A stretch of DNA of 64,000 nt from Harriotta raleighana (lineage: Eukaryota). The stretch covers positions 179,343 to 243,342 of the forward strand of contig JBNZDD010013370.1 in NCBI GenBank assembly GCA_050575255.1, given 5' to 3'. Shown in pieces: positions 12,001-30,000 of the stretch. Made by a program: the position numbers. Each line of letters opens with the position of its first letter. Position 1 is the first letter of the stretch.

Positions 12001-15000
12001 GCTCACGAGCTCAGTGTTAATTGAGCATATGGCTACCAAAGTGGACTAAAATGTACACACAACATGTAGATATTTTTAGATGCTCTGTGTCCTGTGTACG
12101 TTATTACCCAGTTTGTCATGCAATGTGGCAAACATGGGAACGCTGCTGTTTCAGTAGATTTTGGTTGGGCTAAAACAACTACAATAAATCTATATTACTG
12201 AGAGCATGAATTGTACTTAGAAGTTAAATTCTGCAGAGAATGGCACAACATTCCTGAAGCCAGAACCTCCAGTGAAGCCGTTTGTGTAGAATACGACAGT
12301 GAGAGGAAAGCAATGGTACCAGCTATCATCACTTGCTCAAATTCACACAGATTGAGGAGGAGATTTTTCAAAGGATTGGAATGTAATGGGTATGAGAGGC
12401 ATGGGAAATACTCCTTTTTTTTATGGGGAGTCTGTGTATCAACACAAAACCTGGTAATCCTCAGATGTCAAAGTTAGCAGCTGCAGCGTTATGTCACCTA
12501 CAATTGCTGGCATTTCGGTCTCCGGTGTACGGTGGGTCACACAACAGCAGCCGCGTGTGGCCTACAGCAAACACGATAATTCATTCCGGTCAAGGTTATG
12601 TTTTTGACACTAGACAAGGCCGAGTATCACTGAACATGACAATAACCTATAACGAACATTTAAGAGTGCCCCAGTTTATTGTATAACAGAACTTCCATCT
12701 ATAACATTTCTATAAAATCACCTCTAATTCTTCTATATTCTAAAGAATTTACTCCATCAAGGATATTTTTCGAACGTGTTGGTATTCTGTCAAGAGCATT
12801 GAGATGTCTGAAAGGTGTGATAGGGCGCTCTAGCAAATCCAAGTATTATTATTATTCATGTAGCCCTGATCCTGCTGACAACTTGAGAAGTAGTTTATAC
12901 TTCACTAATTTGAGACACAGGGAAGTTGGTTGATTGTTGATTCTGGGAGGCAGAAGAGGACTTGAGAGTAGTAGCAGTAAATAGTAGTTATAGTGGGTGT
13001 GGGGATCGGATGCTGTTGCTCTTGCCAAGCGTAGTGTTTGCGCACACTCAGAGAGGCCGGGGGTAGGGAGGAGGGGGGGTGATGGTGGCTGGTAATGATG
13101 GCTTCACTGTCATTTGCTTCCAATAAAAGAGAAAAGAGATTTAGAAGATTGGATGATTTGATTTTATTGTCCACATTAAATACTGTTATAATAAGTTTGA
13201 CTGTGCTTCACAATGGTGGTGGGGGGGGATCAGGAGATAGACCTGAGGAGGCTATTGATCTTGTCGTTGGTTTATCTAGTCTTCATTTGTGTAGGACGGG
13301 CTCATGTTAATCCCTGGTTTCAGTCCATCAGCTTCACTCACTTCCCTGTTGTTGGTGAGAGGAGCAGTTTGAGGATCCATGAGCTGGAATTTATAAAATG
13401 TTCCAGTTGCGATGAAGATGAATGTAAATAGTCCCAATAGTGCAGCAAACAGAAAAAACTCCATTGCCTGTCAGCAGAGAGTTGGGAGAAAGGTTAAATA
13501 ATAAAGCAATTGGAACAAAGGATCTGTCGGTCCTTAACACACAGCTACCTGAACATCCGCAAACACTATTTATACTCGCAGGCAACGCCCTCAACGCTGG
13601 GTACTTCACACTGTGACACCCGATAAAGAAAATAGGTGAGAAGTAAAGAGGTTAAGGGATAAATACAAGATTAGGATACAGAGAAAAGATCTGCCAAAAT
13701 CTAACATAGCACAACTAGCTCAATGAACTTTCCACTGTTTAAATGACTGACACAATCCTGATCTCTTCAGCATCACACACAAACTACAACAACAAAATTA
13801 CATTTATACAGAGTGTTTCAAATCGGGATGTGAAATGCTCATCGTCCCAAGGACGTCCCAAACTAACCACATTTCTATACCATATTGCTCTGCTCTGCAC
13901 AACCCAACATAGTATAGCTGTCGTTTCTCCACAAATTGGCATAAAATGTCAAATTCACTTGCTATAGGGAAAAACGCATCACATACTCTTGTTGGATAGG
14001 AGAATATTGTGGCAGAACTTTACTCTGAATCAAATCTCAGCTCTGTGAAAGGCACTAGACTGTACAAGTATAATTTTGTTGTTGTCGCCTGACCTCAGAA
14101 AGCTTAGCAGTACAGGATCACGTTGTCTACATTACATACCTGATTATTTATTGGTATCAACTCAGCCACGAGAACTACAATGAGATTGCCTAATCCATCA
14201 GTGAGCACCCAGGCTGCCATCACAACAGACCTCATAGAAGAGGGAGCCTGTGATGATAATAATACTTAATGATCCATACATAAGAACTAGGAGCAGGAGT
14301 AGGCCATTCAGCCCCTCGAGCCTGCCCCGCCATTTAATAGCTGATCTTCTAACCTAATTCCATTTTATAAATTTCTATAAAATCACCTCTAATTCTTCTA
14401 TATTCTAAAGAATTTATTCAATCTCTCCTCATAGATCATGACACCCCCTCATCCCAGGAACCAACCTAGTGAATCTACTCTCTGAAGCGAGTATGTCCTT
14501 TCTTAGATAAGGAGACCCAAACTGCATACTATACTCTAGGTGTGGTTTCACCAAGATCCTATGCAATTGCAGCAAAGCTTCCTTTCTATTCCCTTTTACA
14601 ATGAACGTCAATATGCCATTAGCCTTCCTGCATACTACCCTTTTACGACTAGGGTACAAGGACACTCAAATGCCTCTGAACACTAACACTCCCAAGTCTC
14701 TCCCACTCTAGAAAATAATTCGCTTTTTTAGTTTTACTACCTAGGTGAATAACTTCCCCACATTATATTCCATCTGCCGCCTCCTTGCCTGCTCTCCGAG
14801 CCTGTCTATATAAACTGATAGAAAACTTCTTGATTATCATTGAGAATATTCTTATTCAATAAGCACTGTGTATATAAACCATTTCCCCGAGACACCATGA
14901 GGTGGTGAGAGTTCACTTGATTTGTAAATGTTTAGTTACGGGCCCCCAGCTAGCTGGAGCTTCCCAAAGCCTTGTAGGATCTGCACAATGGAATCCACAC

Positions 15001-27000: not shown

Positions 27001-30000
27001 GAAGGCTGACAGGCAGTGCCTTGGCAGAGTCAAACATGGTTGTAATGGAGGCACATATGAGGGTTTTGGTGGCCCGAGGTTGTGAGGCAGTGGGGGAGTC
27101 GGGCAATGTTGTGGAGGTGGAGATAAGGCAGAGCAGATCAAGGCACGGATGTGGGTTGGGAAAGGACAGTTGAGGATCAAACACTGACTGATTTGGTGGG
27201 TTGGTGTGTGCATCCTTATATTCTGCCAGTGTCTGAGGTGTGGAGGTGTTGATGGGACCCAATCAGGAGGGCCTCAGTTTTTCTGACGGGCAACGGTAGA
27301 AAGTTAGCTCTCAGCCAGGATTTGTATGAGAGCCAATAATAATAATATGTAGAGAGATAAGAAACCCAGAAACTTACCAGCAGCCTCCCCCATGCTTTGC
27401 CACTCACTCTGACAGAATCCGGCTTTGGATCTGAAACATGAGTAGAGAACTGCCAAGTTTGTTATTGAGCAACACCTGCTGGATGGAGTGAGTTCATTTA
27501 ACGTGTAAAGTTTCTGATGTATTCCAGGTCTGTTTATGCAGTGAAGGAGTATAGCCCTGGCACGAAATCAGCAAAATAAACGTAGAAAACAACATGCCGG
27601 ATAACAAAGCCAATTAGAAACCAGGTTAACAGAGAAGTAGGTACAGTATTAAGTAAATTAATTAATATAAGGCATTAAAATAGCAATAAGTGTGGATGAA
27701 GTATGATGAGCTTGTAAGTCAGAAAACTAAGTATCCCCAGGAAAGGCAGTAAGGTGGAATGTATATGTGCAGTTATAGGTGTCGGCCTGGCTCAAGCTTC
27801 CCTATCAGTCCAAGGATAGGGGTTCAAATCCCACTTCAAGATTTTGAGTTCAGAGTAAAGGGCTGACGGGTGAGGTGCTTGTCCTTCAGATGAGATATTA
27901 AAACAAGCTCCTGTCTAGCTCTACAGATAGATATTAAAGATCCCGTAACACAATTGAGAAAGAAGAGTTTTTTCTTCTCTTTGTGGCTGTAGAATATTGC
28001 TCTGCACAAACTATAGATTCTCCTCTTCCGAGGCTCTGCCTTTGGCTGATTTCCTTGCTCAAGCAATTGTGGCATTGCTGCACGATGAGTAACCAATGCC
28101 ACAATTGAAACACCCATTAACGTATTTTGGACAGAAAGCAAGAGAATCACTTGCTTGATTCTCTTGCTTTCTGTCCAAAATATGTTAATGGGTGTGTCTG
28201 GACTTGGAGAAAATAGATAACAGAACAGGTCCCACACATTTAATGGAGTCATATGCTGGCCTAATTGTTTAATGTACAATTGAGTGAAAGATATCAAACT
28301 ATACACAATCAGATCATCTGGCATCTGTCTCATATGTTGCCATTCTAGTTACTTACCTTGCGATTTCTATTGCATTACCCTGCTGTTATCAGCCATTAAG
28401 CACAGGTGCAGCCTTGACTCTGTGGTAATCTTATTAATACCTTGTTATCTACAAATTTCACTATGCACGGTCTGGCTGTTGCAGTAAAATATATTTTAAA
28501 AGCACAATTCGATGAAATAATGTCCATAGATACACAGAAGTGGAGCAGAACCAAGGTTCAAGGAAGGAACGACCATTTGATCTTGTGCTTTCAGACCAAC
28601 CATCCTTTCTCTCTACAGCATCAAAATATTATTTTATACTCGTCTAGCATTGTATCTTAGCCTTGGTTCCCGTAACCTCTTCAAAAACAACGCGCAATTG
28701 TACAGCGTAAATTACACAGGGTAATATCCCAGAGCGCTTTAAATACACACAAAACCACACATATGCAAACCCACATATGCGAACACATGAAATTAGATGG
28801 AGCTTTAGATCTAGGCTACCCTGGTTGTCTGTAATATACAATGAATCATGTGAAGTGCTTGAGATGTATAGTTTTTCCTAAAAGGTATTGTACCAAATAC
28901 AGTTCAAGGAATTATTGCTATTAATTCAAAGGAAGCCGTCACTAGTTACGTTAACTCAGCAACATATGGACCAGTCATCAGCCACTGGTACCTGAATGAC
29001 AATCCTGGACCAATAGCAATGTTATGTGATACACTATTGACACCTTGTGTAAGTGAAGCAGACACAATAATACCTGGTTCCCTGAAGACATCTTGTTGAG
29101 ACGAATCGTCCAATGTTTCATAGTCAGACATGATCATCTCTGGAGCAATGGGCCAAACAAAATGGGAAGAAAGGGGAAAAAAGAGCAGTCAAAGACCAAA
29201 ACAATTATTTCTTCAATATTGTTTTTTCACGACAGCATAAAAAAATCATCATCTCATTAAAAAAAAGTCTGAGGTTACGAGAGAATGAAATAGAATGTGT
29301 CAGAGTGGAAACAAGGACACTCAGTCTGACTAATCTCTATCAGGTTTTATATTCCATATCACAGAAATCATCCTAATCCCTTTCCCACACTTCCGTGTGT
29401 CTTGTAGTTTTGTTGCCATGTTTCAGTCTGAGAGAGAAGAGATCAAACAGTATTCAGAAGTTTCACATTATAGCATGGAATTCCAAATTCTCTACCAAGT
29501 CAAGCAGCTGAACATGATCGACCAGAAGCAAATATTCGGAAGAACTAGACTGATCGTCCAGGGATGTGTAAGGATGCAAGTGTAAGAATTGTTAACAGTG
29601 TCTATCTGTATGTGTGTATCTATGTGTGTCTATGAGTGTGTGTATGTGAGTGTGGATGTATCTGAGTGTGTGTGGAAGCGTGGAGTATGTATATATGTGT
29701 GTGCTTCAAAGAAAGCATTTATACAACTGAGACGTCCAATGAGAATATGGTTCAAATGTAACACTCACTTTAGAAGTTCTGGCATTATATACTTCCACTT
29801 CTGTTTACCTGTCAATTACTAGGAACCCAGTTGTTAGTTGCGAATTGTTTTCCTGGGGAAAAAAAAATTATTTGGCCACTGAATCTACAACTGTTTGGGG
29901 GACGTTGCTGTGCGGCATTGGCGGACGTGTTTCGCCCATAGAATCCAGTCAATTCGCTTTGCAGTGTATTCTGTGAAGCACTTTAAGATGTCTCAACGAC

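Follow-up and report, generated by a model that had tools for sequence, protein, structure and literature searches.

The vertebrate transporters SLC15A1 (PepT1) and SLC15A2 (PepT2), two major drug carriers, join a POT core of twelve transmembrane helices (TM) to an extracellular domain between TM9 and TM10. To our knowledge, they are treated as the only vertebrate peptide transporters that bear this domain, and we know of none in SLC15A3 (PHT2), SLC15A4 (PHT1) or SLC15A5; the solved chains of SLC15A3 and SLC15A4 agree with this, being 577-619 residues long and consisting of the core only. Invertebrate PepTs (echinoderm, mollusc, arthropod) carry an extracellular domain as well, seen as PF14344 in, for example, Hydra and some molluscs. 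Extra copies are on record in fish: in PMC6923934 and PMC9321897, teleost slc15a1a and slc15a1b and the salmon slc15a2 duplicates appear as recent copies from teleost or salmonid genome duplications that lie within SLC15A1 or SLC15A2. Here we analysed 64,000 nucleotides of Harriotta raleighana DNA (contig JBNZDD010013370.1, positions 179,343 to 243,342; this whole stretch is called the window) and observed a real, intact multi-exon gene of the PepT-type SLC15/POT class. Comparison of its exon peptides with known proteins identifies it as an orthologue of a cartilaginous-fish group distinct from SLC15A1 and SLC15A2. We consider it likely that the gene belongs to a third PepT lineage and most likely still encodes a proton-coupled di- and tripeptide symporter, with a rewired clamp for the peptide C-terminus. 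A full-text search, which did not extend to subscription journals and supplements, yielded no account of such a lineage in cartilaginous fishes, and a look-up of six terms in PMC6923934 gave no mention of these fishes.

The gene lies on the minus strand, from 29137 to 13276, and comprises 21 coding exons that add up to 2223 nt, or 741 codons (Table 1). We built the gene model from tblastn matches of two shark proteins (P0002 and P0005) followed by enumeration of splice sites, and read two junctions directly. Twenty collinear matches ran along the interval, exon 17 was instead spotted by eye in the list of open reading frames (ORFs) and took its borders from the splice-site enumeration, and stop-to-stop frames on the minus strand gave clear PepT-like peptides. 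When each exon was checked singly, all 21 were free of in-frame stops. A GT donor and an AG acceptor bounded 20 of 20 introns, and the junction phases were compatible at every one of them; none of the nine codons split across exon junctions, read by eye from the printed contexts, was a stop. The open frame of 741 codons rests on these per-exon checks and arithmetic, and all searches and comparisons of the window were likewise made exon by exon. The donor of exon 2 was placed directly after the residues that align to ...GRLL in the orthologues; an alternative GT in the same phase, 12 nt beyond it at 27366, would give four extra residues that the orthologues do not have. Exon 11 scored 59.6 bits against Pfam PTR2 (PF00854), above the cut-off of 27, which assigns the gene to the POT family; exon 19 stayed under the cut-off at 25.2 bits and exon 4 gave no match, while PF00854 was present in all orthologues of the group described below. 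The initial annotation had reported an intact 21-exon POT gene for a protein of 741 amino acids (aa) at 13276..29137, and its coordinates proved exact. We dropped contamination and a chance ORF as explanations because the gene is spliced, vertebrate genes flank it on the same contig and orthologues occur in the models of 13 species.

To identify relatives, we compared exon 11 (56 aa) with 5.8 billion proteins and obtained 47 matches at E ≤ 1e-5 among 90 candidates. The top 14 were all from sharks or rays (68-81% identity), followed by sea stars (60-62%) and alligator SLC15A2 (58%). No match reached 100%, which means that this collection lacks the protein of the window itself. A query with the protein of the sawshark Pristiophorus japonicus (P0002) listed 120 rows, of which 13 stood apart at 61-100% identity, and the next best match was at 40%. 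Among the best 150 listed from a library of 1.84 billion cluster representatives, four had 67-87% identity and 146 had at most 45%. We refer to this group as clade X. It consists of predicted proteins with the NCBI names SLC15A1-like or SLC15A2-like from 13 named species (9 sharks and 4 batoids), with the Stegostoma member added from a cluster look-up, and of one further protein (P0048). Full-length models (704-856 aa) come from 12 named species and P0048; Rhincodon is known from fragments alone. Among the matches listed, every named relative above 45% identity is a shark or a ray. The highest-scoring relatives from outside the cartilaginous fishes are invertebrate PepTs at 37-40% identity. 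SLC15A3 and SLC15A4 share the POT core fold with clade X and match its sequence much more weakly (E from 2e-37 to 3e-30).

Clade X gave the best-scoring match for 20 of the 21 window exons. When per-exon counts were summed, the eight shark members were 58-63% identical to the window and the five ray members 52-56%, compared to 30-37% for all 35 other rows, with vertebrate SLC15A1 and SLC15A2 at 31-34%. Shark and ray members are 62-71% identical to each other, so the window gene would fall outside the two groups, a position expected of a chimaera's gene. The 2779-nt contig of P0048 encodes a complete protein of 741 aa, and P0048 probably represents a spliced transcript from a skate-like orthologue. 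We rejected it as the transcript of the window locus itself, because its identity to the window ranges from 25 to 71% per high-scoring segment pair and it groups with the skate Rhinoraja.

The fold was assessed on an AF2 model of the shark orthologue P0002, computed from a 41-row alignment (mean predicted local distance difference test score, pLDDT, 78.5; predicted template modelling score, pTM, 0.74). In the model, twelve long helices are accompanied by an insert rich in strands at residues 408-602. Exons 14-18 of the window (~195 codons) align to this insert and are flanked by the exons for TM9 and TM10. A Foldseek search with the model returned the full-length structures of HsPepT2 and HsPepT1 as best solved matches (E ~1e-37, query-normalised TM-score 0.67-0.74), whereas SLC15A3 and SLC15A4 matched the core only (TM-score by query ~0.5, probability 1.0). 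In a phmmer search of the PDB, PepT2 (E = 5e-121) and PepT1 (E = 6e-120) likewise ranked far ahead of SLC15A4 (best 2e-37) and SLC15A3 (3e-31). The predicted architecture is thus that of PepT1 and PepT2: twelve helices form an MFS core, and a large, beta-rich extracellular domain is inserted between TM9 and TM10. This agrees with the PepT1/2-type extracellular domain originally read from the exons, by way of the modelled orthologue.

We placed clade X in a tree of 46 rows: 11 from clade X, 8 SLC15A1 (coelacanth, gar, bichir, frog, reptiles and chicken), 9 SLC15A2 (including Callorhinchus and Pristiophorus), 7 ambulacrarians, 9 protostomes, Hydra and Capsaspora. The Mustelus and Mobula models, which have extra N-terminal parts, all fragments, and the long-branch rows without a species name were excluded. 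In a careful maximum-likelihood tree (IQ-TREE, LG+C20+F+G4 with posterior mean site frequencies, PMSF; 765 columns; root not inferred), support for clade X was 100/100 and its stem measured 1.89 changes per site. SLC15A1 and SLC15A2 together formed a second clade of 100/100 without clade X, on a stem of 0.72 changes per site. Clade X grouped with the invertebrate bilaterian (protostome and ambulacrarian) sequences (90/96), and in a tree of the TM core (468 columns) it was the sister of the ambulacrarians (85/77) on a stem of 1.51; neither of these two branches was starred. Long branches affect the placement on both sides, that of clade X and that of SLC15A1 plus SLC15A2. In approximately unbiased (AU) tests, holding clade X together with SLC15A2 worsened the log-likelihood (lnL) by 76.9 (p = 0.00017), and holding it together with SLC15A1, in a tree without chondrichthyan SLC15A1, by 78.3 (p = 0.0014). 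Both arrangements were rejected. A clade of X, SLC15A1 and SLC15A2 was 7.6 lnL worse (p = 0.193) and was not rejected, though it was not recovered in the trees.

Since both pairings are rejected, these data indicate that the lineage is neither SLC15A1 nor SLC15A2, and the origin of clade X probably predates the SLC15A1/SLC15A2 pair or, at the latest, coincides with the base of that pair. Like the teleost and salmon duplicates, clade X adds paralogues to the fish repertoire, but those copies fall inside SLC15A1 or SLC15A2 whereas clade X falls outside both. The third PepT lineage proposed in the initial annotation is supported and withstood the refuting test set there (nesting within SLC15A1 or SLC15A2 as the genome's only copy); a separate, canonical SLC15A2 (P0085) coexists with the lineage member P0002 in Pristiophorus japonicus. 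The range, confined to sharks and rays among the matches listed, fits the accompanying idea of an ancient paralogue kept here and lost in mammals; given the p value of 0.193 for a sister relationship to SLC15A1 plus SLC15A2, the split may date from the base of that pair or be older.

A different origin would be a young, chondrichthyan-specific duplicate of SLC15A1 or SLC15A2 that moved to the interval between ACE and CCDC103 and evolved so fast that trees displace it from its parent clade. All named members are indeed sharks or rays, the stem of clade X is extreme when compared to that of SLC15A1 plus SLC15A2, and fast-evolving copies get drawn toward the base of a tree. Canonical chondrichthyan SLC15A1 was absent from the 120 rows listed for a coelacanth SLC15A1 query, which held tetrapods, coelacanth, gar and bichir only, so as far as coexistence goes clade X may be the shark SLC15A1. 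However, both pairings were rejected under a site-heterogeneous model, SLC15A2 is present beside clade X in Pristiophorus, and 21 exons mean that the gene is not a retrocopy. At position 159 (human PepT1 numbering), 17 of 17 SLC15A1 and SLC15A2 rows have Arg and 13 of 13 clade X members have Tyr. Five columns separate SLC15A1 plus SLC15A2 from the invertebrates, and the clade X consensus has the invertebrate state in four and the vertebrate state in none; this points the same way, in a sample so small that it carries no weight. We regard a young duplicate as unlikely. The catshark study PMC8923501 lists slc15a1 (PEPT1) only and reports its expression in the embryonic intestine, from a contig that is ambiguous as to the gene it represents.

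The split could also be much older. Clade X would then be the surviving vertebrate orthologue of an invertebrate-type PepT, SLC15A1 and SLC15A2 would descend from another ancient paralogue, and the gene would have been lost independently by bony vertebrates and probably also by other chordates. The best matches outside the cartilaginous fishes are echinoderm proteins (37-40% identity, versus 33-35% for vertebrate SLC15A1 and SLC15A2), both trees attach clade X to invertebrate sequences, and the same small set of columns leans toward the invertebrate state. Against this, neither supporting branch was starred, a clade of X, SLC15A1 and SLC15A2 survived the AU test, both groups sit on long stems in a tree whose root was not inferred, many independent losses would be required, and the data set held neither chordate invertebrates nor cyclostomes. 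The grouping of clade X with invertebrate PepTs may be a long-branch effect, and a pre-vertebrate origin strikes us as quite unlikely.

We next compared the residues of the binding site in an alignment of 48 proteins (13 clade X and 35 others) and the 21 window exon peptides as separate fragments. Positions were numbered by aligning P0002 with the solved chain of human PepT1 in phmmer, and roles follow Killer et al. 2021 (PMC8565842) and a review, Newstead 2015 (PMC4331665). There, ExxERFxYY on TM1 is given as the POT motif (PMC4331665), N171, N329 and E595 of human PepT1 as the site for the peptide N-terminus (PMC8565842, Fig. 6 legend), and a salt bridge between R159 and E604 is described for the outward-open state of human PepT1 (PMC8565842). 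E26, H57, Y167, N171, R185, W294, S302, N329, E595 and N630 were retained in all 13 clade X proteins and in the window; E23, R34 and D323 were retained in 12 of 13 and the window, and Y30 in 10 of 13 (Phe in three) and the window. The N-terminus site is intact in window exons 7, 12 and 19, and the retained set covers this site, the proton-linked glutamates and histidine, and gate residues. The N-terminus triad, E23/E26, H57, W294, S302 and N630 are thus held in common with vertebrate SLC15A1 and SLC15A2.

Six other positions set clade X apart. R27K was found in 13 of 13 members (Arg in all 35 others), Y31F in 12 of 13 (Tyr in 35), Y64T in 11 of 13 (Tyr in 35), K140R in 10 of 13 with Gln in two and Lys in one (Lys in 35), D298E in 13 of 13 (Asp in 33 of the others) and E604H in 13 of 13 (Glu in 27). 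These changes, together with the Tyr at the Arg159 shared by all SLC15A1 and SLC15A2 rows, distinguish clade X from the vertebrate pair; invertebrate PepTs also differ from it, since every row examined keeps R27, Y31, Y64 and K140, and all but two keep D298. The window shows the clade X state at all six signature positions (K27, F31, T64, R140, E298 and H604). Among 408 retrieved proteins, exactly 13, all of them full-length clade X, carry five or six of the six residues, and the other 395 carry at most two. Two proteins (P0319 and P0350) that had joined clade X in a 222-row FastTree (0.92) were rejected as relatives, being 34-39% identical to everything and carrying one and none of the six residues; their grouping is probably long-branch attraction.

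Clade X thus replaces six residues that hardly vary from Capsaspora to vertebrates, K140 and the Arg of ExxER among them. Both partners of the R159-E604 bridge are changed as well, and R161 is not Arg. An intact gene that is no longer a peptide transporter, but a sensor or receptor, a carrier of another substrate or an unexpressed relic in this genome, might show such a pattern. Nevertheless, 12 or 13 of the 13 members and the window keep the N-terminus triad, E23/E26 and H57, along with S302, N630, R185 and D323 at the gate. All replacements preserve charge or shape to a large extent (R/K, K/R, Y/F, D/E), and open frames have been maintained in sharks, rays and the more distant species of the window. 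We consider this reading very unlikely.

A working symporter of a third lineage remains the explanation that we favor. The lineage would have passed through a burst of change on its stem (about 1.5-1.9 changes per site), followed by constraint in sharks, rays and the window species. Its product is predicted to carry di- and tripeptides with protons by alternating access, holding the peptide N-terminus with the equivalents of N171, N329 and E595 and coupling to protons through E23, E26 and H57. R27 and K140 are the pair able to hold the peptide C-terminus, and their residues are swapped here; with Lys for R27 and Arg for K140, this clamp would be rewired. Y31F, Y64T and D298E may further alter the pocket and the extracellular gate. 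With Tyr at 159 and His at 604, positions of a salt bridge on the inner side, one state-stabilising bridge of human PepT1 could not form. From these residues we expect an altered substrate preference, affinity or coupling rather than loss of transport, and the conservative departure from ExxERFxYY is the main reason for expecting altered coupling or binding. Gene integrity, family, lineage, residue pattern and synteny are what the analysis shows, whereas we infer transport activity, its direction, the substrates and the age of the duplication.

More specifically, cartilaginous fishes alone may keep a third ancient PepT paralogue, at least as old as the SLC15A1/SLC15A2 split, whose rewired site would give it different substrates or proton coupling. 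This would combine a swapped Arg/Lys clamp pair, two lost tyrosine hydroxyls in the pocket and the absence of one PepT1 salt bridge with an origin in the vertebrate genome duplications or earlier. For this fuller account we put the chances at slightly under even. A third lineage conserved in sharks, rays and a species more distant still would supply a branch so far missing from SLC15 evolution and be one more gene lost by bony vertebrates. It would also be a natural experiment on residues regarded as indispensable, in which the Arg of ExxER and the Lys of TM4 have been exchanged and the rest of the machinery kept, bearing on proton coupling and on recognition of the C-terminus. The novelty lies in recognising the lineage; the predicted proteins are already public under "like" names.

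Several observations weigh against the favored explanation. In the trees, proteins of other species stand in for the window gene, and the set was without cyclostome, amphioxus, tunicate, SLC15A3-5 and chondrichthyan SLC15A1 sequences; the AU tests share the long-branch pull of their model. The fold was seen in the model of a shark orthologue and not in one of the window protein. The very long stem could mean a changed function, for example as a sensor or for another substrate class. ExxERFxYY, the motif defining proton coupling in POT proteins, is not fully kept, the window reading ExxEK..YF: Lys replaces Arg in 13 of 13 members and the window, and Phe replaces the second Tyr in 12 of 13 and the window, with both Glu residues and the first Tyr retained. 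The TM4 lysine K140 is also replaced, by Arg in the window, and two members of the ray group (Rhinoraja and P0048) have Gln there, so the C-terminus clamp may be relaxed, not rewired. Finally, the local assembly is uncertain around exon 3, which borders a duplicated block next to an N. This block, of 977 nt at 23367-24343, recurs at 24917-25893 with 99.4% identity as a direct repeat in intron 2, the copy sitting 1550 nt upstream in the direction of the gene. Exon 3 straddles its edge, so intron 2 contains a partial copy of exon 3 that has no donor. A 256-nt block of intron 2 (24660-24915) also recurs, at 26992-27247 with 100% identity. Both second copies begin one base past a single N, and the repeats are probably assembly redundancy.

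The gene had also been placed between ACE and FAM187A/CCDC103, and Pfam matches on both sides bear this out; the name FAM187A comes from the second-ranked Atlas cluster for an ORF with an immunoglobulin-type (Ig) domain. ACE and the transporter gene are arranged tail to tail, and beyond the other end of the transporter gene lie the FAM187A-like ORF and then CCDC103. The Mobula hypostoma model (P0013) has the N-terminus of CCDC103 (PF15867, residues 11-90) fused to an SLC15-like protein, and these residues map to the window's CCDC103 exons, which lie upstream of the transporter on the same strand. The fusion is probably a read-through annotation error, and it supports, indirectly and for this one species, the same order of CCDC103 and transporter in at least one ray. 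In the human genome, SLC15A1 (chr13) and SLC15A2 (chr3) are not known to be linked to ACE, CCDC103 and LIMD2 (chr17). The LIM zinc-finger exon further along the window is presumably LIMD2-like, and would match the chr17-type neighbours listed earlier.

Table 1. Exons of the PepT-type gene and neighbouring features, in window positions.
Feature	Position	Strand	Length and description
Exon 1	29074..29137	-	64 nt; ATG at 29137; ends in phase 1; 9 of 13 N-terminal residues match P0005
Exon 2	27378..27430	-	53 nt
Partial second exon 3	24917..24988	-	72 nt plus acceptor, in intron 2; ends at a single N, donor absent
Exon 3	23357..23438	-	82 nt; TM1; E-x-x-E-K-x-x-Y-F instead of ExxERFxYY
Exon 4	22816..22957	-	142 nt; TM2; conserved His (human PepT1 H57); Y64T
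Exon 5	22310..22396	-	87 nt
Exon 6	21617..21716	-	100 nt; TM4; Arg at the human PepT1 K140 position
Exon 7	20863..20953	-	91 nt; TM5; equivalents of Y167, N171, R185
Exon 8	20393..20470	-	78 nt; sole exon not scoring best to clade X (SLC15A2 44 bits, clade X 43 bits)
Exon 9	20074..20156	-	83 nt
Exon 10	19714..19806	-	93 nt
Exon 11	19127..19294	-	168 nt; TM7 region; equivalents of W294, S302, D323; Glu for D298
Exon 12	18460..18548	-	89 nt; TM8; equivalent of N329
Exon 13	18054..18135	-	82 nt; TM9
Exon 14	17611..17727	-	117 nt; extracellular domain begins
Exon 15	17207..17377	-	171 nt; extracellular domain
Exon 16	16542..16588	-	47 nt; extracellular domain
Exon 17	16231..16365	-	135 nt; extracellular domain; weakest match, 34-37% to clade X; without tblastn match
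Exon 18	15633..15744	-	112 nt; extracellular domain ends
Exon 19	15015..15146	-	132 nt; TM10; equivalent of E595; His for E604
Exon 20	14140..14247	-	108 nt; TM11; equivalent of N630
Exon 21	13276..13467	-	189 nt coding plus stop codon (13278-13276); TM12; cytoplasmic tail
ACE	1870-2220, 4284-4583, 7308-7553	+	Peptidase_M2 matches (Pfam)
Ig-domain ORF	33649-32393	-	419 aa, single exon; V-set (Pfam); second-ranked Atlas cluster named FAM187A, score 0.96
CCDC103	39032-38772, 36299-35814	-	Dynein_attach_N and RPAP3_C, respectively (Pfam)
LIM zinc-finger exon	57542-57634	+	Regular-expression scan

The gap between ACE and the transporter gene (9417-13276) measures ~3.9 kb, or 2.4 kb from a duplicated ACE end. 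The 3' end of ACE is doubled (8184-9700 and 9711-11200) on the two sides of a run of 10 N, and the translations of a membrane-anchor ORF are identical in the two copies (9064-9417 and 10535-10888). The tail-to-tail pairing is a curiosity in that ACE releases dipeptides; a functional tie between this enzyme and the adjoining peptide transporter is speculation. A similar duplication around a gap was observed in the region 43001-46653, where ORF translations recur about a run of 374 N: 43001-43369 and 45302-45670 differ by one residue, and 43816-44079 and 46390-46653 are identical. Just past CCDC103, a Lys/Arg/Ser-rich open frame of 254 aa (40506-41267, plus strand) had no Pfam match. A further open frame of 331 aa (62661-63653, plus strand) occupies the G+C-rich end of the window (GC 0.55) and by eye resembles the endonuclease part of a retroelement.

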